The notes beneath the pieces were generated by a model that saw only the letters and a program-made list of their open reading frames with translations, ran no database searches and was not told the DNA's origin. A DNA stretch of 64,000 nucleotides, from NCBI RefSeq assembly GCF_036365525.1, contig NC_090375.1, positions 199,383,864-199,447,863 of the forward strand, given 5' to 3'. Every line of letters starts with the position of its first letter. Within the stretch, counting starts at the first letter, position 1. The position numbers were made by a program, and so were the translations under genes. This document shows positions 10,241 to 64,000 of this stretch, piece by piece. This DNA comes from Heterodontus francisci (taxonomy: Eukaryota).

Positions 10241-11980
10241 CGAGATCTCTGTGCTCCTACATTCCTGGCCTCTTGTGCCTCCTGAATTTAATGGTTTCAC
10301 CATTGGAGGCCGTGCCTTCAGCTGCGTGGGCCTTAAGCTCTGTAATTCCCTCCATAAACCTCTCCACTTCTCTACCTGACTCTTCTCTTTTGACATTCTT
10401 CTTAGAACTTATCTCACTGGCCAATCTTTGGGCCATTTGTCCTAACATCTGGTATTGTGTAAAATTTAGTGTGTTAATGTTCCTGTGAAGTGTCTTGGGA
10501 TGTTTTGCTACGTTAAATGTGCTACTTAATTGCAATTTCTTGAAGCTGTTGTTCAATTTATGTCGTTTGGACCCGATCTAAACTCCTAATATAAATAAAT
10601 AACGACAAGCAGCAGCTTCCAAGATAAAACTCCCTGCAATGTCGTCTGCTCCCTGAAAAGTGTTCCCGGGTATCAATCCAAGAGAACACGGATCAGTGAA
10701 CCCTGGTTTCCATGGTTATTTGATGAGCTGCCTGTTTTCAGCCTGTAAGCTGCTGCCCAACGTAATTCTGATGAAAGGCCATCCACCTGAAACGTTAACT
10801 CTGTTTCTTTCTCCACAGATACTGCCTGGCCTGCTGAGTATTTCCAGCATTTTCTGTTTTTATTTCAGATTTCCAGTAAATTTGGTGCGGGGCCTTCTCA
10901 GCAGCTGGGACTATTTCCCAATTAGAGTGTGCATTAGGAAAGTGCTGTTAATTGAGGTAAATCAACAATAAAAACAATGAATTGATAGAGCGCCTTTAAT
11001 GTAGGACAATGCCTCCAGGCTCTTCGCAGGAGCATATTCTGGCACAAAATGGCCGCTGATCAAAAGAAGATATTAAAGTGTCCACACCTTTGACTTAAAA
11101 AAAATTCTTAGAGGAGGTGGAGAGTGGTGGAGAGGTGGAGGGTTCTGGGAGCTACTTTTAGAGCATTGGACCCAGATGGCTGAAGGCACGGCCCTCAATG
11201 GTGAGGCAAAGGTAGAAGGATCTGAAATATTCAGCCGTGGCTAAAATTGCTGCCTTTATGTACCGCGTGGTTTGACATTTCCAAATTTTCAGAATTGGCG
11301 GTGGTTGATAACAGCGACAATATCAGTCAGTTTTGACAGACAATTTACAGCTAGGAAATTCCTTCCAGCCCTTTTGTGTCACAATTTATTGGTGATCAGG
11401 AGAACAAAGGGAATGTCAGATTGCACTGGGATGGAGCTCCTGACCCATCAATATTTCAGCCGACAAGCCCAACCTCAGCTACCCGGGAATCTGGATGACA
11501 GAGATTATTAGCTTTCTTGAATTGTTGCTGTGTGTGGTGAAGGTACCCCCAATGTGCTGTCACGCAGCGAATTTTAGGATTTTGACGCATTGATGATGAA
11601 GAAATGGCCAAATCAGATGGAGATGCTGTTCCAATGCGTTTGCTGCCCCTGCCCTTCAAGGGGGAAGTCGCTGGTTTGGGATTTCCTGTATCACAATGTT
11701 AAAGGTGCGAGGGCAAGAACGAACCGAATTTTGCTTTTGTAATGCTGCTAAAAAGTGTTTGTAATTCAATGGAGGTTTAACTGTACATAATAAATAATGA
11801 ATACATGTAACATTAGATGTCTGACTGAACGACGTGACTTGTGTCAGATGCTACATATATACCAGTAGAGAGCAGTATGAACAGGAAGTCGAGTCACACG
11901 TGGAATGTTGTGTTAGAGTCATTGCCCTATATATTTGATATAGATGTTAATACAAGTGTCTCACACCTCAGACAGACAAC

Positions 11981-12407
11981 ATGTTGCTGTGTTGGGTTGT
12001 TTTCGTGACATTTGTTCCACGTAAATAGATTTATTCTTTAAGTACGTTTTATCTGTTTTCTTCAGACTGTAAAACTATTTGTAATTTGGTGTTTCTTTCC
12101 GCACAGATGGATGTTTTGCTCAGGATTTGAAACAGAAACAACTGTCAATCACCGTGGGTACGGGGAGAAGTGCTACAGTTACGTGTGAGCTGGGTGAATC
12201 AGTCAGTGCTTCCGTTATCCATTGGTACAAACAGGCAGCGGGACAGCAGCCCGTTCGGATTCTCTACTACGATGGGAACGTTCGTCGAGATGACGGATTC
12301 GATAAAAAGTTTTCAGCATGGAAGATTGGAGAGAAACAACACTTCCTACGTATTAGCTATGTAAAGGCAGAGAATGCCGCCACCTATTACTGTGCCTATT
12401 GGAAACA
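11981..12407 (+). CDS. TRGV: TCR gamma-like V segment (family B), open: leader 11981-12020, V exon 12107-12407
   Basis: Leader MLLCWVVFVTFVP, phase-1 GT..AG intron; HGCFAQDLKQ...TCELGESVSASVIHWYKQ...RILYY...AENAATYYCAYWK with Ig-V Cys/Trp/Cys; IHWY and YYCAxW are typical of TRGV. Confidence 0.92.
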
Positions 12408-12446
12408 CACAGAGCTAAACAACAATTCAATCCGCTTACAAAAACC
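12408..12446 (+). other. 23-RSS
   Basis: CACAGAG + 23 bp + ACAAAAACC. Confidence 0.95.
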
Positions 12447-13149
12447 CTCAACACTGCAATTCAAACATCAGCAAAACCACATCCGATTCAACTGAAAACT
12501 GCCGAAAACTTCCTCGTTCAGTTAAAGGTTTACTCTCTCACATATCACAAAAATTACACAAAGTAAAGAGCTACCCTCACCGAGTCGTGCATTCTTTACT
12601 TTTAGATCCGACATGGAACATCACAGGAGAAGAGGACACAGACAGTGCAATCGGGTGAAATGTCCTGTTAATTCTCTCCACAGACGGTAGCCAGGCGGTG
12701 CCCAGCACGACACTGACCCTGTCTGAGTCTTGCTCACCCGTCACCCCATTGTTTTCCAGCCGCATTTGGTTCTCTGGCCCCAAACAATCCAACTGGAAAT
12801 CTTGATCTTCATTTCCAAATCCTCCTCTACCCTACCTCTGCAACCTTCCCCACTTTATATCCCGAGCCATGTCATTTGGTCCTCCCACTCTGGCCTCTTG
12901 ACCCTCTCTGCTCCATCATCAGTCAGCCTCGAAAGTAGAAACGTTGGGATTCTTTTGCTGAACTCTCCCTTCCTACTTTTCTCTCCCCCTTTTTGGAGGT
13001 CTCCCCTGCAACGATCTTCTTGACTGTTCACGAATGAAGCATAAATTGCTTACTTTTCAGCGGTCTCTGTTCACTCTTGCATTCCTGTTTAACTGTCATG
13101 TCGCACTTATTAGCTCCTTGGTGTTTTTCTTTAAATTAAAGGTAAGTGA

Positions 13150-36623: not shown

Positions 36624-39600
36624 TGTTATGCCCTTTCCTGGTTTGGCCTTAACAGGGTTTGAATTTTCAAATGCAGTGTTTTAGCTTCACTTCACTGAGT
36701 CCTTACTCACTGCTTTCTAATTGTAATTGTAAATAAACCAATCAGACAAGCTTTCTCAGGTTTGAACAAGAAGGGTGTAAATTATCAACCTTAATACTCT
36801 AACTCAGTTAAAGTTACTCAAATTATGTGATGCAACCACACTAGCATGCACATGCAATAAACACACACACAAACAGATACAGAGGAGGAGAAAGAATTAA
36901 GTGGGTGTGGGGGCGGGTGTGGGGGTGGGTGGGGGGGTTGGAGAAGTAAATTGAATTCAGTTACTGTCTGTGGTTTGGATGTAAAGACCTTGATTGGACT
37001 TAAATATTATAGTTCTCGCTGGGGCCCAGTGCACACTTTCAAGTTTGTTTCACTAGTACCAGAAGGCTGAAGAAGTCCTTTTAAGCTGCTTCCGTGGGTC
37101 CCTGGAAGTTTGTTGGAAAGAGAAAGACAGAGAGAGAGGTGCGCTTTCTTCTTGAAGTTCAATTGCAGTCTGCCCCAAACCTTTCTATGAGGCACAATTC
37201 AATCAATTCCCAGGTTGGCCAGCAGGTTAGTCATGTTACCAGCTGTTTGTTTGAAACAGCATTGCCTGCGAGAGTTGTTGATTCTTCAAAGCTTACTAGA
37301 CACTGAATGGGGGTGAGGGGGGAGGGGGGAGTGCTGGCTCTTAGACAATGGCTCTCAATGTCTTTTGATCATCACTATTGACAAAATCCATCTCATTAAT
37401 TGAATCAGGGAGCACTCCCATTGTTTCTCTATGCAACTGTCTCATAGAATGCAAAATGCAGCCATGTTTTCAGCCGTTCAGCTCTGTGGCCTTTTTAAAC
37501 AATTTATGTTCAATGTACAGTAAAAGTTCTAATCGTGTTCCATATGATGAAATGGATATGTTTCTATTTGGCAGGTGTGGTTTCATCACACGTCCACCTC
37601 TCGCCGAATGAAATACGACATTATGGTGGGGGGGTGGGGGCGGCATTTCATTATAAATTATAAGGAAGAGAATGTACAGGAAAACACAAAGATATTTCTC
37701 TCATTCATTCACATTCATTCAGAAGCCTTAAAATTGTTTCAGCCTGTCTTCCCTTGTACTGCTGCTTTGGACGACCCATTTGTCCTTAAGGTGGATCTGA
37801 GATAGTTATGTGTTGCCCAAGGGGTTTAAAGTTTCTTCACTATCAGTGTGCAATATGTTGGGAATGGGCATCCCAATAAACATGTGATTTTTGGGGAGGT
37901 TTGAAGTTTGCACATTTCCTTCATTTTCTAGGGTGTGTTTGTTCCTGTTGGGGTCGGCAGGGAGATGGTTAGATTTAACTAGCCCGGGTTTGGATTTTTG
38001 ATCATGGAAGGCGGCAGTGGGTGGATCCACTCTGATTTCCCTTTCAGTGCTCTGATGAGTCATGCAAGTGCTTTTCTCTTTAGGGTATTTTTGGTTCCCT
38101 TTTCTCCTGGCTGTGGGGAAGGATTCCTTGCTAATCTCCCCTTTGTTCCCTGGGACATTCCTGCTTGCAGGTATTTGTCCAGATTCCACTGCACTCCCCT
38201 GCGGCCCTTCGACTAGGTGAGGCATCACCATCACAGCTTCTCTGCCTTCTTGAGAACTTTATTTGTTCCTGCAGGTTTCTGTAAATGCTATTAGCAACCT
38301 TGGTAGAGTGCTTTTGATGTCTGTATTTACATAGGAGGATGTGGGCCCTAATTTCTTCCATCATTTCAGGATTGGCTGACCGAACAGTAGGGGTTTTCAT
38401 TTGGGAATCCTCCCTGACCTCCTTTCACCTGTCCTCTTGGTCCCTTTTCCCCTTTCCTCTCTAACCTTTAGCCAGTCCTGAACCTGTCTGTCCCCTTTTA
38501 TTCTCGGCAGGGTTCCCTTACAATTCATCAGCCCTCTGCATTGAGAGTCCTCCAAACGCCAGTATAATACTTAGGGGTGTAGATTTCACTGTATGTTAGG
38601 GTTTACCCTTAACCTGGCACATTTGGCAACTCCTACAGTACTCCACCCCATCTTTGTGGAGTTTTGGCCTGTCAAACTGCTGCCTTATGCTGGCTTTGGT
38701 TTTTCGTATACCGACATGTACAGCCACTGTAATCTTCTGGGCCATTCTTACTATTTCAGTCCGATACCACTGCAGCACCACTAACCAGTGAAGCACTGTC
38801 CACTCTTTGTCCTCAGGTCTGTGAGGAGAACTCCACTGCCTCATCAGTACCTCATTCGTTAAATAGTAGCAATTAGGGCCTCATTATGCTTCAATTTCAG
38901 TCTGGCTAACTCTCTCAATACTGGGTTGGCTTGCTGAGCCTAAGCTAGGGAAGATCCATTTAATCCATTCCCTGGGTCCTTTAACTTTCCAAAGAAAGTT
39001 TCAGACAGACAGACCTCATGGTCATATAATAAAAGCAAAATACTGCAGATGCTGGAAATCTGAAAAAAAACCCAAGAAATGCTGGAAATACTCAGCAGGT
39101 CTGGCAGCATCTGTGGAGAGAGAAGCAGAGTTAATGTTTCAGGTCAGTGACCCTTCATCAGAACTGCATCAGTGTTTTTATTTCAGACCTCATGGTCATC
39201 TGTCTACAGTGCCAATTCAGTCTCCTTTGGGGGAGCTAGTTGGGTCATGGTCCAATTCACTACACAGTCAGGGGAACTGCACAGGACAGTCTCTTGTCAT
39301 TGCCCTGTCTCTCTGACCGCCTTCAGTCTCTCTTCAATACTGGGGTTGCTGCCTTCGCCCCTGCCAGATCATTCTCTAGCTGCAGGTCAACCCCATCCAC
39401 AGGCAAACTCGGAATAATCCCTACAGTCACCAGTCCGGAAACTAGGTCCCTCTCCAAGTGCACCGAGTGTAAAGGTTTGGGTGTACACTGCCCTCCAATA
39501 CTGTTCACTAACACTTCGGTGTTTCCTGCACTCTCTGGGGGAAAGGTCAGACCTTTTCCCAGCAAAAAAGGATCTCGTGGCCCCTGTATCCCTGAGAATT

Positions 39601-42098
39601 ACTTTGGGCTTATTTGCCCCACTCACGGGGTATGGGGTTACTCGCCATTTTAACACAAAATCCTGATAACCTTCAGGAATCCTATTAAATTTTCCTGCAC
39701 CGGCAGCAGTATGTTTTCTGAGTCTTACTACTGCTGCAGTCAAAGCCACAGCTTGATTTGCTGCACTTTCCATCAGGGTCCCTTCTCCTTCACTGAGCGG
39801 GTGTGCCCTGATTAACCCTCAGGTTTTCCCCATAATTTCCAGCAGTCAGCTCTTAGATGACCTGCATCATTACAATGGAAACACACAGGCCTTCGGGACT
39901 CACCCCTACTTGGAACCCCACTATCATTTTTGGTTGGAGGAGGGTCCCCTGTGTGTCCAAATTTTCATTTTCACCCAGTACTGTTTTGGCTCCTATCATC
40001 TTCCCACCTTTTGTTCTTTTCGGATTTGTGGGGGTGACTAGGAAAGGTTTTCCCCTGAGGAACTGACCTGTCTGTCACAGCAAACGCATCAGCCAGAACT
40101 GTGGCTTGCCTCGCTCTATGTACTTTTTGTTCCTCCACGTGGGTCTTTATGGAGAGGGGGAGAGAGTTTTTAAATTCCTCGAAGAGAATTACCTCTCTGA
40201 TGTTTTCATAGCTGGGCTGCACTTTAAGAACCCTCAACCACTGGTCAAAAACCAACTGCTTACTTCTCTCAAAGTCCAAGTAAGTTTGATCAGCTTGGCT
40301 CCTGAGGGTCGAAACTTCTGGTGGTAGGCCTCTGGTCCTAGCTCATATGCCCCGAGGATAGTTCATAATTTGATGAACTCTCCTCTGACAATAGGGAATA
40401 AACCTCATGGGCTTTTCCTGTGACCTTACTTTGCAGCAGGAGAGTTCATCTCTCAGCCAGCCATTTTAACTGCCTTGCAAAAGATACAAAAAATGCTTCC
40501 ACATCACCCTCAATAAATGATGGAATCAGTTGAGAAAATTTTTTAAACTCAGTACACAGCCCCGTATTTTCACTGAGGTTACTCTGTCGCCTCCCTAGTT
40601 AATTCAAGCTGCCTTAGCTCTCTTTTCTCCTGCTCCTTCTGGAAATTTCTCTCTCTCACTCTATCCTGTCTTTCTTTCTCTCTCCCTTCTCTCATTTTCT
40701 CTCTCTCCTGTCTCTCCTTTTCTCTCTCTTTCCCTGTCTTCTCATTTTGTTTCAATTGTATCATTGTTAGCAATACCCTGTCGAAGTCTATTTCTAGCCC
40801 TGTCTCTGATACTTCAGATTAGAGGGGAAAATAGTTGGCCACTTGTCTGAGGAGTTCGGACTTCCTAACCTTCCTAATCTTACCAGAGATCCCTCACTGT
40901 TCAGTCATATTCCTCAACCCCTCCATAGACAGTGCCTTTAACTTATCCTAAGTTATTTCACCCTGACTTGGGTAGTTGCTGTCTTCAGTTGTGGACATGT
41001 TAGTATTCTAGCACACATAACCACAAGAAAACATCAATTGAAATATTTTCTCTTTTTGATTGGGATCAATTTGGTTTCCCACTTCCAATTTCTCATTTAT
41101 CTGTGGGTCCAATCTGGACGCCAGCCCTCAAATTTCTGTTCAGACTGGGTGAGGAAGGGGACTCAGGCTGTCCTCTGACCCCTTTCCTTGTTTGACCATA
41201 ACAGGGTTTGACATTTAAAACATAGTGTTTTAGCTTTACCTCAGTGAGTCCTTGCTCACTGCTCTCTAATTGTAATTGTAAATGAACCAATCAGCCAGGC
41301 TTTCTCATGTTTAAACAAGAAAGACGCAAGTTTATTAACCTTAACACTCTAACTCAGTTAAATTTACTAAAATTACGTGACACAACCACACTAGCATGCA
41401 TACACAATAAACATACAAACAGATACAGAGGAGGAGAAAGCATTAGCAGGATGTGCATTTGAAGAAGGAAATGGAATTCAGTTACTGACTCTGGTTTCAA
41501 GGTAAAAATCTTGTTTGGAGTTAAGTATTGCAGTTCTCGCTGCGGCCCAGTGCACACTTTCAAACTTGTTTTGTTGGTACCAGAAGGCTGAAGAAGTCTC
41601 TTAAGCTACTTTCGTGGGTCCCAGGAACTTTGCTGGAGTGAGAGACAGAGAGAGAGAGGTGCTTTCTTCTTGAAGTTCAATTGCAGTCTGCCCCAAGCCT
41701 TTCTGTGAGACACATTTCAATCAATTCCCAGGTTGGTCAGCAGGTTAGTCATGTGACTAGCTCTTTGTTTGAGATAGCATCGTCTGTGAGGGTTGTTGAT
41801 TCTTAAAAGCTTACTAGACACACTCAGTCAGGGTGTGGAGATCTGGCTCTTACACAAACAATGGCTCTCAATGTCTTTTGATCATCACTATTGACAAAAT
41901 TCATCTCGCTAATTGAATCAGGGAGCACTCCCATTGTTTCTCCATTCAATTATCACTCAGGATGCAAATGTGCAGCCATGGTTTCAGCCGTTAGCTCTGC
42001 GGTCTTCTTAAATAGGTTATGTTTAATGTCCAGGAGAAGTTCAAATGGTGTTCCATATGACGAAATTGTTTCCATTTAGCAGGAGCGGTTTCGTCACA
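36624..42098 (-). mobile_element. Internally deleted Gmr1-like gypsy LTR retrotransposon; LTRs 36624-37590 and 41137-42098; TSD CATT
   Basis: TG...CA ends; CATT at 36620-36623 and 42099-42102; tRNA-Pro-like PBS at ~41110-41131 (minus); gag knuckle CFHCNDAGHLRADC (~39840-39885); protease LRDTGA; integrase Zn finger 38596-38844; no integrase core or RT seen. Confidence 0.92.
39026..39183 (-). mobile_element. Short Penelope pLTR/hammerhead insertion with a 16-bp TSD, nested in the LTR element
   Basis: CAGACCTCATGGTCAT at 39010-39025 and 39184-39199; minus strand reads AGTT-CTGATGA-A-GGGTC(ACT)GACCT-GAAA-CATT-AACT. Confidence 0.85.
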
Positions 42099-49402: not shown

Positions 49403-49801
49403 GGGCGGCACAGTGGCGCAGTGGTTAGCACCGCAGCCTCACAGCTCCAGGGACGGCGCAGTGGTTAGCACCGCAGCCTCACAGCTCCAGGGACCCGGGT
49501 TCGATTCTGGGTACTGCCTGTGCGGAGTTTGCAAGTTCTCCCTGTGACTGCGTGGGTTTCCTCCGGGTGCTCCGGTTTCCTCCCACATGCCAAAGACATG
49601 CAGGTTGATAGGTTAATTGGCCATTATAAATTGCCCCTAGTATAGGTAGGTGGTAGGGAAATATATAGGGACAGGTGGGGATGTGGTAGGAATATGGGAT
49701 TAGTGTAGGATTAGTATAAATGGGTGGCTGATGGTCGGCACAGACTCGGTGGGCCGAAGGGCCTGTTTCAGTGCTGTATCTCTAAAACTAAAACTAAAAC
49801 T
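49403..49801 (+). mobile_element. V-SINE (HE1-like), tRNA head, CR1-like tail
   Basis: Head GGCACAGTGGCGCAGTGGTTAGCAC...GGTTCGATTC; V-domain GGGTTTCCTCCGGGTGCTCCGGTTTCCTCCCAC; (AAAACT)n tail; absent at the paralogous site ~10249. Confidence 0.88.
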
Positions 49802-51551
49802 CTGTGCTCCTCCATTACTGGCCTCTTATGCCTCCTGATTTTAATCACTCCACTGTTGGAGACCGTGCCTTCAGCCACGTGGGTCCGAAGATCTGTCATT
49901 CCCTCCATAATCCTCTTCAATTCTCTACCCCTCTCTCCTCCTTTAAAACTCTCCTTAGAACCTGTCTCAGTGACCAGACTTTGGGCCATAGAGAATCATA
50001 GAATCATAAAACGTTTACGGCACAGAAAGAGGCCACATCGTATCTGTGCCAGCCGAAAAACGTTCTTCCCATTCTAATCCCACCTTCTAGCATTTGGTCC
50101 GTAGATTACAGCACTCTGTCCTGATATCTGGTATTGTCAAATTTAGTCTGTTAATGTTCCTATGAAGTATCTGAGGATGTTTTACTCTATTAAATGTGCT
50201 ATTTCATTGCAATTTATTGAAGTTGTTGTTCAATTTACATTGTATTGACCCGATCTAAACTCCTAATATTAATAAGCAGCTGCAAGCAGCAGCTTCCAAG
50301 ATAAAACTCCATGCAATGTCGTTTGCTCCCTGGAAAGTGCTCCCGGGTATCGATCCAAGAAGAACACGGATCAGTCAACCCTGGTTTCCATGGTTATTTG
50401 ATTAACTGCGCCTGTTTTCAGCCTGTAAGCTGCTGCCCAACGTAATTCTGATGAAAGGCCATCCACCTGAAACGTTAACTCTGTTTCTTTCTCCACAGAT
50501 ACTGCCTGACCTGCTGAGAATTTCCAGCATTTGCTGTTTGTATTTCAGATTTCCAGTAAATTTGGTGCGGGGCTTCTCAGCAGCTGGGACTATTTCCCAG
50601 GTAGAGTGCATTAGGAAAGTGCTGTTAATTGAGATAATCAACAACAAAAACAATGCATTGAGAGGGCGCATTTAATGTAGGAAAATGTATCTAGGCTCTT
50701 CACAGGAGCATATTCTGACAAAAGTGGAATAAAAGAAGATATTAGATAAAGTGCAAAATGTTTGACTGAAAGTTTTCTTAAAGAAGAAGAGTGGTGGAGA
50801 GGTGGAGGGTTCTGGGAGGTAATTTTGGAGCATTGGACCCAGATGGCTGAAGGCACGGCCCTCAATGGTGAGGCAAAGGTACAAGGATCTGAAATATTCA
50901 GCCGTGGCGATAATTACTGCCTTTATGTACCGCGTGGTTTGAAATCAGCGACAATATCAGCCAGTTTTAGCAGACATTTTACAGCCAGGAAATTCCTTCC
51001 AGCGCTTTTCTGTCACAATTTATTGATGAGCAGGAGAACAAAGGGAATGTCAGGATGCACTGGGATGGAGTTCCTGACCCATCAATATCTCAGCCACAGG
51101 CCCAAACTCAGCTACCTGGGAATCTGGATGACACCAGGATCTAGGATTTTGACCCAATGACGTTGAAGGAATGTTCAAGTCCGATGTTGATGCTGTTCCA
51201 ATGCGTTTACTGCCCCAGTCCTTCCAGCTGGAAGTCGCTGGTTTGGGATTTCCTGTCGATTTGACAATGTTAAAAATGCGAGAGCAAGAACGAACCAAAT
51301 TTTGCTTCTTTAATACCTCTTAAAAGTGTTTGTAATTCAATGGAGATTGCATTCTACATAATAAATCATAAATACATGCAACATTAGAAGTCTGACTGAA
51401 AGGTGTGACTTGTGTCAGATGCTACATATATACCAGTAGAGAGCAGTGTGAACAGGAAGTTGAGTCACACGCGGAATGTTGTGTTAGAGTCATTGCCCGA
51501 TATATTTTATATAGATGTTAATACAAATGTCTCACACCTCAGACAGGCAAC

Positions 51552-51978
51552 ATGTTGCTCTGTTGGGTTGTTTTCGTGACATTTTTTCCACGTAAATGGA
51601 TTTATTCTTTAAGTAGGTTTTATTTGTTTTATTCATACTGTAAAACTATTTGTAATTTTGTGTTTCTTTCCCCACAGATGGATGTTTTGCTCAGGATTTG
51701 GAACAGAAACAACGGTCAGTCACCGTGGGTAATGGGAGAAGTGCTACAATTACGTGTGAGCTGGGTGAATCAGTCAGTGCTTCCGTTATCCATTGGTACA
51801 AACAGGCAGCGGGACAGCAGCCCGTTCGGATTCTCTACTACGATGGGAGCGTTCGTCGGGATGACGGATTCGATAAAAGGTTTTCAGCAAGAAAGACTGC
51901 AGACAAGCAATATGTTCTGCGTATTGGCGATGTAAAGGCAGAGGATGCCGCCACCTATTACTGTGCCTATTGGAAACA
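51552..51978 (+). CDS. TRGV: TCR gamma-like V segment (family B'), open: leader 51552-51591, V exon 51678-51978
   Basis: Leader MLLCWVVFVTFFP; HGCFAQDLEQ...TCELGESVSASVIHWYKQ...AEDAATYYCAYWK; paralog of 11981-12407. Confidence 0.93.
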
Positions 51979-52017
51979 CACAGAGTTAAACAGCAATTCA
52001 ATCCGCTTACAAAAACC
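51979..52017 (+). other. 23-RSS
   Basis: CACAGAG + 23 bp + ACAAAAACC. Confidence 0.95.
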
Positions 52018-53033
52018 CTCAACACTGCAATTCAAACATCACCAAAACAACATCCGATTCAACTGAAAACTGCCGAAATCTTCCTCCTTCAGTTAAAGGT
52101 TTACTCTCTCACATATCATAAAAATTACACAAAGTAAGCAGCTACCCTCACCGAGCCGTCCATTCCTTTACCTTTAGATCCGACATGGAACATCATAGGA
52201 GAAGAGGACACAGACAACGTAATCGGGTGAAATATCCTGTTGATTCTCTCCACAGACGGTAACCAGGCAGTGCCCAGCACGGCACTGACCCTGTCTGAGT
52301 CTTGCTCACCCATCACCCCATTGTTTTCCAGCCGCAATTGGTTCTCTGGCCCCAAAGCAATCGAACTGGAAATCTTGATCCTCATTTACAAATCGTCCTC
52401 TACTCCAGCTCTGCAACCTTCCCCACTTTATATCCTCAGAAATAGGGTTGCCCAGGTGATGTGGGAGAATGAAGCAGAGCCGGAATGCCAAGTTATTGGG
52501 CAATGTCTTGGTACAGGAATAAGGACCAGTGGTGATGGGTCTGGTCTCTGGAGACAGGTATATTTCCCATTCGTAACGAAATTAAAGGACATTCTCACGA
52601 ATGAGAATGACAACCAGAACTCACAGCTAAGGAAAGATTAAATTATGACAGTTTAATTAAAGGATGGAGCAGAGCGATTGAAAGACCATGTTAAAGCTAT
52701 AAATAAACTCAACCAGGAGGATAGAAACGTTTCTGATCAGGCTGCCAGAATGGTCTGTGTATTTTGTATGGCTCCTGATTGGTAGAGCAGGCCAGGGAAA
52801 ATCTGAGGCAAATTCACAGAGCGGAGGTGCTGCTTGGGAGACTAATAACCATCAGGACACATTGGATGAGTGACAGAACAACATCACGGTGTGCCAACTC
52901 AGAGGTTTGTTGTGGGCATACCCTGTTCAAACAGATTGTAAAAGGGAAGATTTCAAGATAATGGGTTTGGTGATGTAACTTCTGGTAATGCCACAAGGGG
53001 AAGCACCGCTCCCGGTCTCGAGAATAGCGAACA

Positions 53034-56000
53034 AAGAACAAATAACAAAGAAAATTACAGCACAGGAACAGGCCCAACGGCCCTCCAAGCCTGCGCCGAT
53101 CCAGATCCTCTATCTAAACATGTCGCCTATTTTCTAAGGGTCTGTATCTCTTTACTTCCTGCCCATTCATGTATCTGTCTAGATACATCTTAAAAGACGC
53201 TATCGTGCCCGCGTCTACCACCTCCGCTGGCAACGCATTCCAGGCACCCACCACCCTCTGTGGAAAGAACTTTCCACGCATATCGCCCCCTAAACTTTTC
53301 CCCTTTCACTTTGAACTCGTGACCCCTAGTAATTGAATCCCCCACTCTGGGAAAAAGCTTCTTGCTATCCACCCTGTCTATACCTTTCATGATTTTGTAT
53401 GCCTCAATCAGGTCCCCCCTCAACCTCCGTCTTTCGAATGAAAATAATCCTAATCTACTCAACATAGCTAGCGCCCTCCATACCAGGCAACATCCTGGTG
53501 AACCTCCTCTGCACCCTCTCCAAAGCATCCACATCTTTTTGGTAATGTGGCGACCAGAACTGCACGCAGTATTCCAAATGTGGCCGAACCAAAGTCCTAT
53601 ACAACTGTAACATGACCTGCCAACTCTTGTACTCAATACCCCATCCGATGAAGGAAAGCATGCCGTATGCCTTCTTGACCACTCTATTGACCTGCATTGC
53701 CACCTTCAGGGAACAATGGACCTGAACATCCAAATCTCTCTGGACATCAATTTTCCCCAGGACTTTTCCATTTACTGTATAGTTCACTCTTGAATTGGAT
53801 CTTCCAAAAAGCATCACCTCGCATTTGCCCTGATTGAACTCCATCTGCCATTTCTCTGCCCAACTTTCCAATCTATCTATATTCTGCTGTATTCTCTGAC
53901 AGTCCCCTTCACTATCTGCTACTCCACCAATCTTAGTGTCGTCTGCAAACTTGCTAATCAGACCACCTATACTTTCCTCCAAATCATTTATGTATATCAC
54001 AAACAACAGTGGCCCCAGCACGGATCCCTGTGGAACACCACTGGTCACATGTCTCCATTTTGAGAAACTCCCTTCCACTGCTACTCTCTGTCTCCTGTTG
54101 CCCAGCCAGTTCTTTATCCATCTAGCTAGTACACCTTGGACCCCATGCGACTTCACTTTTTCCATCAGCCTACCATGGGGAACCTTTTCAAATGCCTTAC
54201 TGAAGTCCATGTATATGACATCTACAGCCCTTCCCTCATCAATCAACTTTGTCACTTCCTCAAAGAATTCTATTAAGTTGGTAAGACATGACCTTCCCTG
54301 CACAAAACCATGTTGCCTATCACTGATAAGCCCATTTTCTTCCAAATGGGAATAGATCCTATCCCTCAGTATCTTCTCCAGCAGCTTCCCTACCACTGAT
54401 GTCAGGCTCACCAGTCTATAAGTACCTGGATTATCCCTGCTACCCTTCTTAAACAAGGGGACAACATTAGCAATTCTCCAGTCCTCCGGGACCTCACCCA
54501 TGTTTAAGGATGCTGCAAAGATATCTGTTAAGGCCCCAGCTATTTCCTCTCTCGCTTCCCACAGTAACCTGGGATAGATCCCATCGGGACCTGGGGACTT
54601 GTCCACCTTAATGCCTTTTAGAATACCCAACACTTCCTCCCTCCTTATGCCGACTTGACCTCGAGTAATCAAACATCTGTTCCTAACCTCAACATCCGTC
54701 ATGTCCCTCTCCTCGGTGAATACCGATGCAAAGTACTCATTTAGAATCTCACCCATTTTCTCTGACTCCACGCATAACTTTCCTCCTTTGTCCTTGAGTG
54801 GGCCAATCCTTTCTCTATTTACCCTCTTGCTCCTTATATATGAATAAAAGGCTTTGGGATTTTCCTTAACCCTGTTTGCTCAAGATATTTCATGACCCCT
54901 TTTAGCCCTCTTAATTCCTCATTTCAGATTGGTCCTACATTCCCAATATTCTTTCAAAGCTTCGTCTTTCTTCAGCCGCCTGGACCTTATGTATGCTTCC
55001 TTTTTCCTCTTAGCTAGTCTCACAATTTCACCTGTCATCCATGGTTCCCTAATCTTGCCATTTCTATCCCTCATTTTCACAGGAACATGTCTCTCCTGCA
55101 CGCTAATCAACCTCTCTTTAAAAGCCTCCCACATATCAGATGTGGATTTACCTTCAAACAGCTGCTCGCAATCTACATTCCCCAGCTCCTGCCGAATTTT
55201 GGTATAGTTGGCCTTCCCCCAATTTAGCACTCTTCCTTTAGGACCACTCTCGTCTTTGTCCATGAGTATTTTAAAGCTTACGGAATTGTGATCACTATTC
55301 CCAAAGTAGTCCCCTACTGAAGCTTCAACCACCTGGCCGGGCTCATTCCCCAACACCAGGTCCAGTATGGCCCCTTCCCGAGTTGGACTATTTACATACT
55401 GCTCTAGAAAACCCTCCTGGATGCTCCTTACAAATTCTGCTCCACCTAGACCTCTAACACTAAGTGAATCCCAGTCAATGTTGGGAAGATTAAAATCTCC
55501 TATCACCACCACCCTGTTGCTCCTACATCTTTCCTTAATCTGTTTACATATTTGCACCTCTATCTCACGCTCGCTGTTGGGAGGCCTGTAGTACAGCCCC
55601 AACATTGTCACCGCACCCTTCCTATTTCTGAGTTCTGCCCATATTGCCTCACTGCTCTCGAGTCCTCCATAGTGCCCTCCTTCAGCACAGCTGTGATATC
55701 CTCTTTGACCAGTAATGCAACTCCTCCACCCCTTTTATCTCCCTCTCTATCCCGCCTGAAGCATCGATATCCTGGGATATTTAGTTGCCAATCATGCCCT
55801 TCCCTCAACCAAGTCTCAGTAATAGCAATAACATCATATTCCCAGATACTAATCCAAGCCCTAAGTTCATCTGCCCTACCTACTACACTTCGTGCATTAA
55901 AACAAATGCACCTCAGACCACCAGTCCCTTTGCGTTCATCATCTGCTCCCTGCCTACTCTTCCCCTTTGTCACGCTGACTTTATTATTTAGTTCCTTACA

Positions 56001-57987
56001 GGCTTTAGTTACTACCTCCTTACTGTCCACTGACCTCCTCATTTGGTTCCCATCCCCCTGCCACATTAGTTTAAACCCTCCCCAACAGCGTTAGCAAAAG
56101 CACCCCCAAGGACATTGGTTCCAGTCCGGCCCAGGTGTAGACCGTCCAATTTGTAATAGTCCCACCTCCCCCAGAACCGGTCCCAATGTCCCAAAAATCT
56201 GAACCCCTCCTTCCTGCACCATCTCTCAAACCACGCATTTATCCTGACTATTCTTTCATTTCTACACTGACTATCACGTGGCACTGGTAGCAATCCTGAG
56301 ATTACCACCTCTGAGGTCCTACTTTTTAACTTGGCTCCTAACTCCCTAAATTCTGCTTGTAGGACCTCATCCCGTTTTTTACCTGTATCATTGGTGCCTA
56401 TGTGCACAACGACAACTGGCTGTTCACCCTCCCCATTCAGAATGTTCTGCAGCCGATCTGAGACATCCCTGACCCGTACACCTGGGAGGCAACATACCAT
56501 TCGGGAGTCTAGTTTTCGACCACCTATCTACTTCTCTTACAATCCAATCCCCTGTGATTATAGCCCTTCCACTCTTTTTCCCGCCCTTCCAAACAGCAGA
56601 GCCAGCCACGGTGCCACGAACCTGGTTACTGCTGCCTTCCCCTGGTGAGCCATCTCCCTCAACAGTATCCAAAACGGTATACTTGTTTTGGAGGGAGATG
56701 ACCACAGGGGACTTCTGCGCTGCCTTCCTGCTCTTTCTCTGCCTTTTGGTCACCCATTCCCTTTCTCCCTCAGCAATCCTAATCTGCGGTGTGACCAATT
56801 CGCTAAACTTGCTATCCACGACCTCCTCAGCATTGCGGATGCTCCAAAGTGAGTCCACCCGCAGCTCCAGAGCCATCATGTGGTCGAACAAGAGCTGCAG
56901 CTGGACACACTTCCTGCACGTGAAGGAGTCAGGGACATCAGCCGTGTCCCTGAGCTCCCACATTGAGCAAGAGGAGCATGACACGGGTCTGAGATCTCCT
57001 GCCATTTTTAATCTTAAGCTTAACTTAGTTAAATGAAAAAGGAATGAAAAGTTTTTACCAATCACACGATGAAAAAAAAGAGAAATTGAAAAGGCCTTAC
57101 CTTATCTACACACCACCAAGTCCTTTTTTTTGGTTAGAGGAGGAGGGCGGGTGGGAGACACTACAGGTGTAGTGTCTCGGGTTCAGAAACAGCCCAAATA
57201 TATAGGGTTTTACTTACCCAGCAGCCCCCTGGTCTCCGCCAAAAACAAAAGGAAATTAAGTTTACTTTGAAACTGACCTTCCCAGCTGCTCACTCGCTCG
57301 CACTCTCTACTCCTGAATAAGCTGCTGCAATGAAAGGCAAGTTATTTTAAACAGATCAAATATATAGGGTTTTACTTACCCAGCAGCCCCCTGGTCTCCA
57401 CCGAAAACAAAAGGAAATTATGTTTACTTTGAAACTGACCTTCCCAGCTGCTCACTCGCTCGCACTCTCTGCTCCCGAATAAGCTGCTGCAATGAAAGGT
57501 AAGTTATTTTAAACAGCCCAAATATATAGGGTTTTACTTACCCAGCAGCCCCCTGCTCTCTGCCGCAAAGAAAAGGAAATTAAGTTTACTTTGAAACTGA
57601 CCTTCCCAGCTGCTCACTCGCTCGCACTCTCTGCTCCCGAATAAGCTGCTGCAATGAAAGGTAAGTTATTTTAAACAGCCCAAATATATAGGGTTTTACT
57701 TACCCAGCAGCCCCCTGCTCTCCACCGAAAACAAAAGGAAATTAAGTTTACTTTGAAACTGACCTTCCCAGCTGCTCACTCACTCACGCTCTCTGCTCCC
57801 GAATAAGCTGCTGCAATGAAAGGTAAGTTATTTTAAACAGCCCAAATATATAGGGTTTTACTTACCCAGCAGCCCCCTGGTCTCCGCCGAAAACAAAAGG
57901 AAATTAAGTTTACTTTGAAACTGACCTTCCCAGCTGCTCACTCGCTTGCACTCTCTGTTCCCGAATAAGCTGCTGCAATGAAAAAAA
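53034..57987 (-). mobile_element. Full-length young CR1 LINE (5' monomers, ORF1 Zn finger + SGNH esterase, ORF2 APE-RT), TSD GAACA
   Basis: ORF1 ~57003-56066 (CSSCSMWE..CRKC, VHIGTND, DGLHL); ORF2 pieces 56066-55608, 55611-54919, 54771-53455 (FADD); GAACA at 53029-53033 and 57988-57992. Confidence 0.96.
57187..57983 (-). repeat. 162-bp tandem monomers (~4.9 copies) forming the CR1 5' end
   Basis: Units start at 57187, 57349, 57511, 57673 and 57835, highly similar. Confidence 0.95.
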
Positions 57988-58828
57988 GAACATATCAGTC
58001 ATCAAGGTGGATAATCATATTGACGGGAACTAGGTTAGAAGGGTGCACTGACAGAAGAGGTAATGTGATATGCCCCTATTGGTTGGAAAAGCATCCCAGT
58101 CAACATGTGGATTCAACCTTACTGAGCTAAACTGTGCCATGGAGGCTGCAAGGGTGGCTCTGAAATCTAAGCAGGCAGCCTATGTTGGGGAAGGGAATAC
58201 TGTGTAACCACTAAGGGAAAGGGGTACAAGCATGGAAGGAATTTATGGTGCCTGATATCCCAACCTACCTTCTGTTGTACGCCTGAAGAGCCTGTAGGAA
58301 CAGGTAATAGGGAGATTGTAAATATTTGGAGCCCTAACAGTACTGAGTTTAACGTGAGGGAGGATTTAAAGGGAACTTTGAGACAGTATTTGGAGAAGTT
58401 TAGGTATGACACACCCCTGTTACTTAAGCATTTGACTAAATTGCGGGGGGAGATTGATAAGTCATGAAAGTTTATTATCAAATCCAATGAATGAGCCACC
58501 AGATTTTGCAAGAGATTAATGACATCCCAGAAACATCTTGGTGGGATGGGATATGGAATTGGAGAGGTATTATTGAGATACACCCCTGGATAAGAATTAT
58601 CTCCCATTACACTCGCTGTTGTACATTTGCTTATTGTTGTGTATCTGTTGTATGAACAATGTCATTCGTGCAAACATAGTAGAGCGGAACAGTGAGTGAA
58701 AATATTACTGGAGAGACGGAATAACGTGAATGGATTAGATTTGAAAGTGTAGTCCTATTCACAGACGAAATTATACACTTAAGGGTGGATGCTGTAATGC
58801 ATTTGGATACCTCTTGTATTTTTGTTAT

Positions 58829-59360
58829 TGTTACGACAAGGTGAGAAGGGGTTTAGGGGTTCTCTCTCAACCTTTACCTGGCTTAAGCGTAACAGGGTTT
58901 AATTTTAGAAATGCTATGTTTTTAGTTCCCCCTCAGTGAATCCTTGTTCACTGCTCCAATTGCAAGGTAAATAATTCAGACAGGTTTCCTTAGATTTAAC
59001 AAGAAATGTGAACGTTTATTAATCTTAAACTCTTTTCCAGTTAACGACTATGAATGTGTGACACAACCATGTGAGCATGCATGCGCAATAAATGAACATG
59101 CAGATAGAGACAGAAAAAGTAGAAAAGAAGAAAGAGGAAATGTTTGAGGCAATATCAAGATTATAATTACAGTTCTTTGAGTTCAATGTGGAGTCTTTGG
59201 TTGCCGGTAAGACCTGCTGTTCATTGGGGCCCAGTTTAGGCTTCAACTTGTTTCGATGTCAGAGTCTTTTCTCTCTTGAGGTTTACATGTCTTCTGTGGG
59301 TCTGGTGATTTGGAAAAAGTAAGACAGAGACAGCCTGGAGAGCAGCTTTCTTGATCCAGT
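58829..59360. mobile_element. Partial solo LTR related to the Gmr1-like LTRs at 36624 and 41137
   Basis: Starts TGTTACG; shares TAACAGGGTTT..TTTTAG..CCTCAGTGA.TCCTTG.TCACTGCT with those LTRs. Confidence 0.75.
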
Positions 59361-59995
59361 GTAGCCGGATGGCTAACAGCTAAGCATCTGCAAAGCATGA
59401 AGGGAAAAATAGCCATCTTTACACAAGGACAAGGACTGTGAAACAGCTGCAGTTGCAGTTTAACGAACCCAGCCTGATGAATAGGCACTGTGTGATAAGA
59501 TGTGCTCCGAATGAGACTATGAGACTGCTGCGGTTGCAAAGGTTGCTAATCAAGGATAGATAAGAAGAACAAGGCCAATAGATGTATTTTGTCTTGCAAC
59601 TAGTAGCTAAGCAAATGGATGAATCCAAGACATGGGGGTACGTGACTAAGTACATTTTCGATGCTGGGAGCAACTGGACAAAAAGGGGAGGCTAGGAGCC
59701 TCCACAGCGAAGACCTGCAGGAACAAACATCGTGGAAGGGAATCCTGTGTCCGAGACTCAGTGAAGAGAACCCATCGGGGGGGGGAGACTGATCATCTTA
59801 CCTCGCAACGGGTAGTATTTAAGTCCAAGCCATGAGTCTTGTGATTGTTGTAACAAGTAACAAGTAGTTTAACAAGTGAAATAACGAGTAGCTTAATAAG
59901 TGATTTAAGTCTCAATAAAAGTGTTTATATGAAGTATCCCATGTAGGTATCCTTTGTCCACCACATCAGTTGACACCCTAGTTTGAGGGTCAACA
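59360..59995 (+). mobile_element. LTR (R/U5 end) of an env-bearing element; 5' boundary uncertain
   Basis: AATAAA at ~59915; terminal hairpin GTTGACACCCT..AGGGTCAAC; ends CA at 59995 just before the PBS. Confidence 0.7.
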
Positions 59996-59998
59996 TTT

Positions 59999-60016
59999 TG
60001 GCATCCCTGGGTGGGC
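59999..60016 (+). other. Primer binding site complementary to tRNA-Asn
   Basis: TGGCATCCCTGGGTGGGC, one mismatch to TGGCGTCCCTGGGTGGGC (reverse complement of the vertebrate tRNA-Asn 3' end, from memory). Confidence 0.8.
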
Positions 60017-62229
60017 ACAGTTAAGTGATCTCCTTAAAGTCACACCGTGTCTGACCCATAGATGTGCAAGACAAACAGTAGAACTGATGGATGCCTGCCC
60101 AGATAGCTAGTTGTACGAGGGAATTGTGTGAAAAGGAAATGGAAATTGTTAGGTTAAAAGAGGAACTCGAGTTTGCGCAGAGAGGGGAGGTGAAAGGATT
60201 ATGTCTCTTCACCTCTTCACACTTCGTCCAAAAACATAGGAAACAAGTTTCTGTGCCTTTTGATTCGGATGTGTGAATGTTGGAAGCTTCCACCAATGAA
60301 ATGAATGTCCTTGGGATGTGCAGCTTGTGTTCTGTAGAACTGAAAGCCCTTAATTCTTTGTTGTCTGGCTTTAATGTTGAAAGCATGAGTTACTTGTTCT
60401 ATTTTTACACGTGTATATTTTGTGGGAACCTTGAGTCATGTTTTGGTTGCGAACTAGTTGAACCAGTGTGTGTTCTTTGGCATCGGGACAGGGAATTTGC
60501 CTCAGATTTTGGTACATTGAATTCATAACCCATTACAGGAATCAATTTTCTAAGTTGTTTGGAATTGATTGAGTGTGAAAAATGATTGTTGAGTGTGTTC
60601 ATTTCAATTTAAGATTGTGCAACCAGAAATGGGATATAAAATTGAATTATATTTTAAGTTAAAGTTTTATTGTTATTTTAAAAGTTGGTTTTGCAGCTGT
60701 GAAAAGGCAATGAACAATTTTCTAAAAGATAAGCTTCAGCCTTGAAGGTCTGAAGATGTCTGTCAGAAATCCAATTTGAAGTTTAAAACATTGGTTTAAT
60801 TGGTGTTCCAGTTTAAAATCTGTTCTTTTTTTTGCAGTTTAAATTAAAGACATGTTTTACTGACTGTTTTAAGTAACAAATGTGAGGAATTGGATATTAG
60901 TTTAAGGGAGAGAAGGATAAATAAAGGAAATATGGCAAAGATTCTGTCTGTTTAAAGTTTGTTTAAGAAGCTGGTGTCAAATTTTTTGTTATAAGAATGT
61001 TAAATAACTGTTTCTTTAATTTTTGGTTTTATTAGTCATTTAAAAAGGCGCCTGAAGAAAGAACAAGAAAAATGATATAATTTACCTATCTTTAAAAAAA
61101 GTACATGCTATTCTGTTCTGTGTGTGGTTAGTAAGTATTATAAGTTAATAAGTCTGAGTTAAGTTTATACTATTAAGATTAACTGACCTGCAAAGTTGAG
61201 AAAACTGGAAATTTCATTTGTGGCCACAATAAACTTTCAAATTTATTATGTAAATTTTTGGGGGAGTCTTTAATTCCGGACATAAGACCCGCTCGTATAA
61301 CATCGGCTGTTTTGATTTTTAAATATTTATTGCCGTGAATTGTAATTTGGAATCATCTTGGTTGTATAAACAAAATCCTTGGATTAGAAACCTCTTACAA
61401 AAGATGCTAAAAGTTTGGAAGCAATTGGAGTTTAATCTAAAATGCTGTCTTCCTTTGAAGTTGATGCTGTTACTAATGATTTTGTTGCTTTCAAACCCTA
61501 AGAATGCCAAAAGAATTGAACAAAAAACAGTTTAAAATGGAGTTTAGTTCTTTTCAATCAAAAAAAAGGTTACTCAAAGTGACCATGTGAGAAGGTTTTG
61601 CTCCGCCCTCTTGGAGACAAGCAAAAATAAATTAACCCCGCTGCTGCTATTGTTTTTCCATTTAATTCGCCACACAATTTTTGCATTGCTGAGAGTAAAA
61701 TTTATATATATTGGACATTATTTAATCTTAAATTTCTAAATTGACAGATATAATTGGACAAATTAACCCATTGTGCGCAGGGGCAGAGCCACAATGGATT
61801 CTTTCTGGGGTTTTTTAAAGCAGGTGATGGTAGGTTCCAAGCCCACATGAGAACTGAGGCCACAGCAAGAGATCCAGCAGCTTTGAGAATTTAAGAACTT
61901 AATTGCGGACATCAAATATCACAGCATCTTTATCAATGAGACAAAGTACTGGAGAAGGAGAAATAGTTGCAAGCACTTCTGTCTTTAATGAAAAAAATTG
62001 CAATATCATCAAGTCTGGGCATAAGAAGTTGGAATCGATAGACACAATTTAACTGATATGAGTGGTTATTTAAAGCACTCAAAGGGAAATTTATCTGACA
62101 TTTAAGAGGACAATCAAAGTTTTAGAAAAAAAGCCAGTCTAAGTGGTTTACTGTGTTGGACCTTAGCAATAGGAACTGTCTTTTTTATATATATGATCTC
62201 CTAAAAAAAAAAAGAACTATTATGTACCT

Positions 62230-64000
62230 GATGGACAATTTAATCTACCAGGACGAATCCCATGAGTGTCAGGTTTTGACAGCAAAGGCCCTCAAGGGAC
62301 GTGTTGTGTCAAAATCATTGGGGGGTGTACAAGGGAAGGAGCCAGCAATGTATGGTCGTGTGATGATGAAGAATGTAGAAACCGATCAATATGTGTGAAA
62401 CCACACAACGATAGGGACTGTTGGCTCTATTGTGTTGGGAAAAATAAAAAAGGACAGTTCCTATTCCAGGTTGTGAGATTAAACGGGCAAGAAGCACCAA
62501 CTCCCGTGGTTACCCCCACATCCAAATTACCAACGGGTAGGTTTACGACCCAGCAGCCATAAGTGACTGATCTCTCTTGCCCTGCCTTAACTGCAGGACC
62601 AGAAAATGGACTTGCAATAATAAAAACTAGTAACATTTTATATGATAATCTACAGCATGAGGTAATATTGAATATCTCAGATATCCAGCTACCTGACTGG
62701 TTCCCTGAGAAGCCCCGAGAGTTGAGTTTAGTTTAATTTAGTTTAGAGATACAGCACTGAAATAGGCCCTTCGGCCCACCGAGTCTGTGCCGACCATCAA
62801 CCACCCATTTATACTAATGCTACACGAATCCCATATTCCTACCACATCCCCACCTGTCCCTATATTTCCCTACCACCTACCTATACTATGGCAATTTATA
62901 ATGGCCAATTAACCTATCAAGGTTAAACTATTAAAGTTGAACAAGGTATTACTGCAACAATTACTGAGACAAGAGTTCGGTGATGAGGGAATAATGAAGG
63001 GAAAAAGACGTAAACGTTGTTTAGTGAATGATGCAGCTACGATCTTTAATACAGGAACTTCAATTGTCAATACTATAGACTTGGAAAATGTGGACCAGAA
63101 GTTTAGAACTCTCAGCCAGCTAGTAAAGGATATTTTTAAAAAGGAGCAAAAAGGCCAGAATTGATGTAGTTGGCAGGATCCTGACGAGAAGCTTATTTTG
63201 AGCTCGCAGGATCTGAACTAGACACCAAAATACAAAAGGGGAAGTTAACAATTCAGGAAGTCCTCTAGTATAGGTTAGTTAAGGATTCAGGGAATCCTCA
63301 TGGGCCAGGGGTCCATTTTGGAATTGAGAGGGTACTTAGAGGATAAGTGGCCCTCATGGAGTTTGCAGTTAAGCAGTGCACGGGTCAGGGATCCATAGCA
63401 GTGCAGCATGGGGAGACTGCTCGTACTCACCGGGCTAAGAGAGCCCCTAAACTTTTCCTTGTCATATGTTTGTATTCCGGTGCCTGGGAGTTTGACATCA
63501 TTGGAAAAGGGGTCAATCTTCCCATCCTGAGTTAAATTAGGCACAACAGAATTGACATAGGTGGCAGGATTAATGTCACGGAAGAAATGGATAAAAAGGG
63601 GAGTACTGTACTACCACCTCATTAAAGGAATATCAATATGGCATCTGGGCTTATTTGATTACCACCCTTTGCTTTAACCCCCAAATACCAGCCAGAATAG
63701 GCCAAGTCGAGCTGGTTGATATACATAAGAGGGAAGAAACTGTGCTTAATGTCACGGAAGAAATTAAACAGAGTTTGGGAAGGTATTTTGAAAAATACGA
63801 AACTAACATTAGACTTGTACCGAGGACTTGCAATGGATCAAGAACCAGTTAGCTAAAACCCGCCAGGCATTTGTCAAAGTCATTCAGAAAGCTGAGGGAA
63901 CCGGGTGAAAGATTGAAATGATTAGAGTAACCAATTGGTGGGATGATATTTTTAATGGGATACCAACATACAGATACATCCCTGGATAAGAATTGTTTCA
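62230..64000 (+). pseudogene. Second degenerate env-like glycoprotein gene, runs off the window
   Basis: Cys-rich ORF 62266-62562; furin site RRKR 63006-63017 followed by a fusion-peptide/heptad-like segment; ORF 63655-63852 and the WWDDIF/IHPWIRIVS end are homologous to 58260-58605. Confidence 0.72.
62725..62920 (-). mobile_element. V-SINE 3' half inserted in the env-like gene
   Basis: Reverse complement of ~49604-49800. Confidence 0.85.

Follow-up and report, generated by a model that had tools for sequence, protein, structure and literature searches.

A stretch of 64,000 nucleotides from the shark Heterodontus francisci (contig NC_090375.1, positions 199,383,864 to 199,447,863 of the forward strand), referred to here as the window, carries at its 3' end the remains of two envelope (env) genes, A and B. 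An earlier reading of the letters alone (the original prediction) had described them as two decayed genes of a retrovirus-like lineage, grouped around a single long terminal repeat (LTR). The best overall explanation is probably that the two genes, now broken, entered the genome in separate insertions, belong to one family that other sharks also have, and were likely left by a lineage of LTR retroviruses; the envelope protein (Env) of that lineage was likely an F-type class I fusogen related to the Env of lokiretroviruses (Loki Env). Both are dead fossils: each carries several stops or frameshifts in addition to an inserted element, so that neither can now encode the protein, and the locus shows no sign of a host function. 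The region contains the following features (LINE and SINE, long and short interspersed nuclear element; ORF, open reading frame; RT, reverse transcriptase; PBS, primer-binding site).

52436..53028, + strand: env A, 5' piece, with an abrupt start near the predicted cleavage/heptad region
53029..57985 (3' limit approximate), - strand: CR1-like LINE within env A, ~5 kb, with an esterase-type ORF1 and an endonuclease-RT ORF2
57986..58695, + strand: env A, 3' piece, with Cys-rich core, heptad, Trp-rich membrane-proximal stretch, predicted transmembrane segment and short tail
58780..58828, + strand: purine-rich tract and putative start of the 3' LTR of element A; sequence read directly, single copy in the window
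58829..59360, + strand: third LTR-like repeat fragment, unrelated, between A and B; 69-70% identical to 41137-41429 and 36632-36883
59361..59994, + strand: 5' LTR of element B, with TG..CA ends, TATTTAA at 59816 and AATAAA at 59914; one copy in the window
59999..60016, + strand: PBS-like 18-mer; 17/18 match, the sole match in 64 kb
60088..60580, + strand: decayed Cys-rich ORF after the PBS, with an ATG at 60091 and a short predicted coiled coil
62141..62201, + strand: ambiguous stretch, with a 10-residue string resembling RT motif A and, in the next frame, a signal-peptide-like hydrophobic run
62197..62736, + strand: env B N-terminal subunit, with an 8-Cys head (62302-62433), a Pro/Thr linker (62494-62559) and a GPxxG-aliphatic motif (62596)
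62737..62920, - strand: SINE inserted in env B, 95% identical to 49605-49792
62921..64000, + strand: env B remainder, with RRKR, fusion-peptide-like segment, heptad, shortened core, heptad and Trp-rich stretch; leaves the window before the transmembrane segment

Two env genes and their elements

Gene A (52436-58695) reads as a single env interrupted by a LINE, because 52779-52975 matches the N-terminal residues 1-65 of the homologous Heterodontus protein P0006 (22 of 63 identical; score 60, compared with 27 +/- 3 and a maximum of 31 in 15 shuffles), and 58020-58644 matches downstream parts of homologs, namely residues 17-225 of P0011 (76 of 208 identical; score 327, maximum of 47 in 10 shuffles) and regions of P0006 and P0007. 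The 5' piece begins at 52436, homology to the paralogous V-segment block at 11575-12862 stopping at 52435, and is devoid of an LTR, gag, pol and the env N-terminus. Its reading frame breaks near 52831 and 52873; the 3' piece has frameshifts near 58081, 58197, 58484 and 58617, as well as stops near 58467 and 58490, and is followed at ~58780 by the purine tract, where the string AAGGGTG is located. The LINE, which matches RVT_1 (E=1.5e-35), Exo_endo_phos_2 (E=1.6e-11) and Lipase_GDSL_2 (E=7.8e-12), is 95-96% identical to a copy at 4838-6928 of the window (repeat family D1); it sits inside env A and therefore arrived after it. Its 5' end is made of five 162-bp tandem units (57187-57983) that are 95% alike.

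The original prediction placed both genes around one LTR and PBS. An LTR-shaped unit and a PBS-like 18-mer do exist, but they belong to B only, because a contig of run X6, which stems from a second organism, covers 59652-60083 and resumes at 60244, so that it connects the LTR of B with the PBS and the internal sequence, and the third repeat separates them from A. Judged from this arrangement of the sequence, A and B are separate insertions. In the control for the PBS, 3 of 100 shuffles gave any match when up to three mismatches were allowed. We take this site to be of the tRNA-Asn type; Rfam and ARAGORN put no label on it. Summed contig depth in run X1, which is not a measure of copy number, was 57,000-133,000 over the third repeat versus 160-650 over env A.

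Downstream of the PBS, the frame at 60088-60580 holds 2 stops in 164 codons, compared with 11 and 13 in the other + frames. It had no Pfam match below E=0.2 and no match in a PDB search, and is possibly an accessory gene or a gag leader. Between this frame and env B lie ~1.5 kb of AT-rich DNA without a Pfam match. The linked pol assumed by the original prediction was not found: neither gag nor pol was detected in element A or element B, where no RT, RNase H or integrase domain was detectable, and a Pfam search of 12 window frames returned no viral family. The layout of element B is thus LTR-PBS-(gag/pol undetected)-env, continuing past the end of the window, and that of A is env plus purine tract only. 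In the DNA runs, summed contig depth over 60200-62600 and 63015-63215 was many times that over the LTR and the env 3' end of B, which, depth not being copy number, hints at abundant deleted, non-autonomous derivatives. Target-site duplications were sought for the LINE, the SINE and the third repeat, and none was convincing.

Gene B extends from about 62140 to beyond 64000. In its N-terminal subunit, which had no match in Pfam and PDB searches, the 62302-62736 frame has 2 stops in 145 codons, compared with 11 and 15 in the other frames, and the frame that starts at 62922, after the SINE, has 5 in 193, compared with 20 and 12. Contigs that skip the SINE are present in all four runs (X1, X3, X5 and X6). 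The RRKR furin site lies at 63006-63017 and is preceded by ~210 aa, which contradicts the short N-terminal part initially proposed. Further downstream, 63595-64000 matches residues 75-212 of P0011 (73 of 136 identical; score 382, maximum of 34 in 10 shuffles), with breaks near 63821, 63908 and 63958. Gene B does not have the C-x8-CP..CG core motif that A keeps and, by register, appears to have been shortened by roughly 70-90 codons that included this motif. An exact 18-bp direct repeat (63571-63588 and 63747-63764) lies beside the shortened core. In the middle of the gene (63150-63600), similarity to homologs was not above that of shuffles, and a by-eye alignment of 63240-63490 to P0006 was rejected as chance, 220-805 of 1000 shuffles reaching the same score. 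Because B has no such core and its middle is unmatched, the complete architecture has to be pieced together from A, B and homologs from elsewhere.

A family of env genes in sharks

The homology between the two + strand genes, as originally claimed, was confirmed. The frames at 58222-58464 and 63598-63849 share 32% identity over 66 aa (E=5e-10), and a wider alignment gives 38% over 72 columns; at the nucleotide level, blastn found a single 61-nt match (75%). PTFCCTPEEP and TTLCFNPQIP do lie at 58264 and 63661, in frames that align, and WW..IHPW motifs occur in both genes, the two halves in B being in different frames (break near 63958). The pairing of TKLKDILT (52582) with QLVKDIFKK (63130), on the other hand, does not rise above chance (E=0.34; score 30 versus 28.2 +/- 3.8 in shuffles).

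A phmmer search of 1.84 billion representatives (threshold E<=0.001) returned ten matches, eight of which belong to the env family; the other two, repetitive phage tail proteins matched through their repeats, were dropped. All eight are partial proteins, and the four that are named come from sharks, Heterodontus francisci accounting for two and Heptranchias perlo and Rhincodon typus for one each. B is closest to P0011 (61%), and A, P0006 and P0007 are 30-46% identical to one another and to B, which suggests old, deep subfamilies. The Heterodontus francisci proteins P0004 and P0012 are predicted FBXO15 isoforms whose C-terminal ~200 aa, including the transmembrane segment, are of the env family; these fusions could be a gene-model artefact or an exonisation.

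No intact full-length env copy was found in the searches made. Profile searches restricted to 556-2000 aa and 78-555 aa returned one and five proteins, none of them a full-length env, and a word-indexed homolog search with a window fragment gave nine candidates, none at E<=0.01. Pattern searches yielded 12 matches in viral contigs and 81 in metagenome contigs, none confirmed, and no match in phage records. Related copies were represented in the sequencing runs by 13-25 contigs per site, SINE-free forms among them. On the evidence of these protein sequences, the env family occurs in other sharks besides this locus.

Fusogen type and viral backbone

The claim that this Env is not of the gamma-type surface/transmembrane (SU/TM) kind was borne out. 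The CX6CC motif was absent from the four homologs checked (4/4) and from both env loci, and no TLV_coat match was obtained; we therefore regard the predicted protein as not gamma-type. Its ectodomain after RRKR would measure ~390 aa.

This Env is very probably an F-type class I fusogen. The class I layout is present, with a furin site followed by a fusion-peptide-like segment and a heptad, and with a second heptad before the transmembrane segment. Heptad a/d positions are 67-83% hydrophobic, compared with 14-27% elsewhere (best of 7 registers), and the predicted transmembrane segment has a hydropathy of 2.0-2.8. The parts of a Loki-type Env (RXKR, fusion peptide, coiled coil and transmembrane segment) are present as a composite, with an ambiguous signal peptide. 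Here and below, published elements are described from the sections of the cited papers that were consulted; for Loki Env these were 8 of 23 places in the supplement of PMC7947760, seven of them with a visible N-terminus, and the counts were made by eye. A fusion-peptide-tail pattern derived from these sequences fits six of the seven and occurs once in 64 kb, 9 residues past RRKR; together with the furin site it appeared in 0 of 200 shuffles. A GPxxG pattern, also found in six of the seven, occurs once in 64 kb, upstream and in the right order (19/200 shuffles), and a C..CP..CG..C pattern was present in four of the six homologs tested (0/200 shuffles). The sole Pfam fusogen match was Baculo_F, which P0004 and P0012 show within their env-related portion (E=0.0011 and 0.0012), below the curated cut-off. 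An Atlas model of P0006 (pLDDT 0.54) had as its nearest neighbours two unnamed 874-aa chordate clusters (TM 0.50 and 0.47), followed by two Baculo_F-bearing clusters (TM 0.42 and 0.41), all of them under the Atlas naming bar. The two unnamed clusters have 60 and 57 members.

Several observations weigh against this assignment. The motif patterns were written after both sets of sequences had been seen, and the Cys spacing was widened to cover both the Loki C-x9-CP and the shark C-x8-CP; the patterns are therefore support rather than proof. PF00523 had no match in hmmscan searches whose input consisted of broken frames or of fragments without most of the fusion-peptide/heptad region, and a PDB profile search returned no F protein, only a spike chain at E=6. 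AlphaFold models of P0006 and P0011, built from 6-8 sequences, were of low confidence (pLDDT 37.9 and 41.4), and Foldseek with the second of them gave no match at E<=0.001. Compared with Loki Env, the stretch that follows RRKR is shorter by 6 residues, and it is weakly hydrophobic (11-residue means at most 1.0). Finally, an Atlas feature search with P0011 ranks class III fusogens first (Monjiviricetes_fusion 0.92, gB 0.91, rhabdovirus G 0.90), with a recognition score of 1867 that is weak and under the bar. PDB sequence searches produced nothing relevant, the match to protein A (E=0.005) being made of two short chance stretches. Foamy Env (PF03408) had no hidden Markov model (HMM) match and an Atlas feature row of 0.84. 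Of the original interpretation, a likely F-type Env with a real resemblance to Loki Env is supported by the shared motifs, the Baculo_F match and the Atlas structure rows, but similarity to PF00523 is not supported; fusion-protein similarity was found, and the best match was not TLV_coat.

As to the pol that accompanied this Env, a class III (snakehead- or foamy-related) backbone, rather than that of a true lokiretrovirus, has in our estimate somewhat less than an even chance of being correct. Clade III loci form the majority of RT loci in cartilaginous fish (2843 versus 2018), and tRNA-Asn PBSs have been reported from foamy-like elements of galago, newt, guppy and molly. The string KWFTVLDLS at 62141, which is unique in 64 kb and was reached in 0 of 200 shuffles by a pattern set after the string had been seen, is nearer to motif A of snakehead retrovirus (SnRV; LDISNGFW) and of CmiERV than to that of Loki (LDCAQGYW). 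Because foamy and errantivirus Envs are also F-like, F-likeness alone does not point to Loki. Fish foamy-like Envs, too, lack foamy similarity, so the missing PF03408 match is compatible with a foamy-like pol. Against this, RVT_1 and PDB searches for RT were empty at the 62141 string, its flanks have no RT similarity, and a signal peptide, which is just as plausible a reading, overlaps it (the highest hydropathy over 15 residues is 2.09, at 62145). The proposal of "loki-like or env-captured gypsy" elements was right about a real resemblance to Loki Env, but it omitted the class III retroviruses, which we judge the likelier carrier.

It is doubtful that these are true lokiretroviruses (lokiorterviruses) which reached cartilaginous fish and whose Env gained an N-terminal head and a Trp-rich stretch. 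The three ordered motifs are common to Loki Env, and RXKR, fusion peptide, coiled coil and transmembrane segment match the Loki model, with a similar predicted post-cleavage length; frequent host jumps of these viruses are also known. Lokiretroviruses are laid out as LTR-gag-pol-env-LTR, with a dual RNase H (tether plus RH) and a CGIN1-like integrase. However, Loki RT was found in none of the six chondrichthyan genomes of a published screen, Rhincodon included, and yet Rhincodon carries this Env (P0008), one of the reasons why we lean away from Loki. This point is itself weakened by P0008, a chimeric-looking gene model with ~65 matching residues. Furthermore, IHPW has no occurrence in the first 300 of the 318 supplement pages of PMC7947760, the sole RT-like string is not Loki-like, and PF00523, which matches Loki-Str Env at E=2.2e-7, has no match here.

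It is unlikely that the carriers were Ty3/gypsy (errantivirus-like) retrotransposons with an F-type env, which would be the first in a vertebrate. Baculo_F is the sole Pfam fusogen match, the Atlas neighbours include arthropod Baculo_F clusters, and the gypsy elements of invertebrates, tunicates among them, widely carry an F-type env. Nevertheless, the consulted part of a survey lists for vertebrates no intact elements with homology to the errantiviruses of invertebrates, Loki Env agrees well with the motifs, and the RT-like string, if real, fits an SnRV-like RT. Other backbones share a small remaining chance.

A class III fusogen (of the gB, chuvirus or rhabdovirus G type) instead of an F-type one is very unlikely. 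Monjiviricetes_fusion appears on 21 of the 30 Atlas feature matches of P0011, P0006 has one rhabdovirus G row (0.87), and gB-type env is common in gypsy elements; however, the recognition score is under the bar at which such scores count, the rows of the structure search with P0006 include Baculo_F but nothing of class III, and the succession of furin site, fusion-peptide-like segment and heptad is, like the Baculo_F HMM match, a class I feature. Most improbable of all are viral insertions of non-retroviral origin, in which a LINE would have copied the F mRNA of a mononegavirus, or host genes that were co-opted, with the LTR and PBS incidental: gag and pol are undetected, a LINE lies within A and paramyxovirus-like insertions are known in sharks, but A and B are both badly damaged, the runs contain related copies as well as SINE-free forms, the LINE inside A arrived later, and a purine tract follows env in A as an LTR-PBS precedes it in B.

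With an F-type Env as the preferred reading, its mechanism may be transferred from known class I F proteins. A hydrophobic N-terminal signal would direct the precursor into the secretory route, where it would be cut by furin at RRKR and would form a trimer. Contact with the target cell would likely be made by the Cys-rich head, carried on its Pro/Thr linker. Once freed, the fusion peptide would enter the membrane of that cell, and the heptads, one after the fusion peptide and one before the Trp-rich membrane-proximal stretch, would pack together as a six-helix bundle enclosing the Cys-rich core, a collapse that the Trp-rich stretch may aid. In the viral cycle, tRNA-Asn would prime reverse transcription.

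Genomic setting and known systems

The window is likely an immune-receptor locus. Five V gene segments (12408, 21606, 23974, 42147 and 51979) are accompanied by recombination signals of the 23-bp-spacer type, and 51680-51970 has a V-set match (E=5.5e-16). The YYCAYW ending is, we presume, that of a T-cell receptor gamma locus. A duplicated block (10438-12862 and 50117-52435; ~39.6 kb apart, 86-91% identical) stops in its second copy exactly at the start of env A, and the window also carries CR1-like LINEs and SINEs. A plausible history is that A integrated next to a V segment, was truncated at its 5' side and was split by the LINE; that a further repeat, followed by element B, arrived at the 3' end of A; and that gag-pol and some of env disappeared from B, which also gained the SINE.

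Loki-like or F-type Envs in sharks are undescribed as far as could be found, in literature coverage that lay outside subscription journals and Repbase/Dfam. A paper in J Virol on endogenous foamy viruses of cartilaginous fish may describe related elements. A family of shark LTR elements with a Loki-like F-type Env and an added N-terminal head is likely an undescribed variant. Screens based on RT or on gamma/beta Env would overlook this env or assign it wrongly, a possible reason for the missing description. As a less likely possibility, we consider an old, diverse and undescribed shark lineage that combines a class III (snakehead-related) pol with an Env of the Loki/paramyxovirus-F type and swaps N-terminal receptor-binding heads (the 8-Cys head here). 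Among the four ways in which Wang and Han suppose that retroviral env could have arisen, they preferred independent capture by Loki and canonical retroviruses; foamy Env later proved F-like. Placing the RT of the shark family would be a direct test between Loki in cartilaginous fish and an F-type Env on a third retroviral backbone. If class III pol and F-type Env do go together, F-type Env would span Loki, foamy and snakehead-like retroviruses, which would make it more likely to be the ancestral envelope of retroviruses than to have been captured independently.

Among known systems, the snakehead-related class III endogenous retroviruses (ERVs; CmiERV lineage I, PMC4422223; clade Huo, PMC6001957) are abundant in cartilaginous fish and have an RT motif A like the ambiguous string at 62141. 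Unlike the shark elements, the scaffold-2 CmiERV (PMC4422223; DNA read by eye) has another PBS and a gamma-type env with an immunosuppressive domain (ISD) and CX6CC. Foamy and foamy-like Envs (PF03408; PMC11468914, PMC5512871, PMC5210030) share an F-like core, some of these elements use tRNA-Asn, and the AAGGGTG at the purine tract of A resembles their reported GGGTG junction; in contrast, the shark Env has neither a PF03408 match nor the large receptor-binding domain inserted before the furin site (N-subunit ~210 aa). The shark foamy-like elements in PMC5512871 are known there from pol only.

Baculovirus F and errantivirus Env (PF12259; PMC13524379) show a weak HMM match to the membrane-proximal 125 aa (E about 0.001), the same layout of furin site and fusion peptide, and sub-threshold structural neighbours. 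However, in the consulted sections of PMC13524379 errantivirus F-type Env is known from invertebrates only and the PBSs are mainly Ser, Lys and Leu, and the shark match is below the cut-off. Paramyxovirus and pneumovirus F (PF00523) have the same predicted order of N-subunit, furin site, fusion peptide, heptad, Cys-rich core, heptad and transmembrane segment. The shark Env differs from them in its undetectable profile similarity, its longer N-subunit with a Cys-rich head of its own, and its LTR context.

Lokiretrovirus Env (Wang and Han, 2020, PMC7947760; 2022, PMC9040795), compared by eye and by pattern search, shares RXKR, the fusion-peptide-tail pattern, GPxxG near the start of the fusogen core, the C..CP..CG..C spacing, heptads, a C-terminal transmembrane segment and a long post-cleavage ectodomain. 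The shark Env departs from it in having no PF00523 match and a host class negative in the Loki screen, in a shorter and less hydrophobic fusion peptide and more Cys after the core, in a WW..W.WG...IHPW membrane-proximal stretch and, in B, in the addition of an 8-Cys head and a Pro/Thr linker of ~130 aa.

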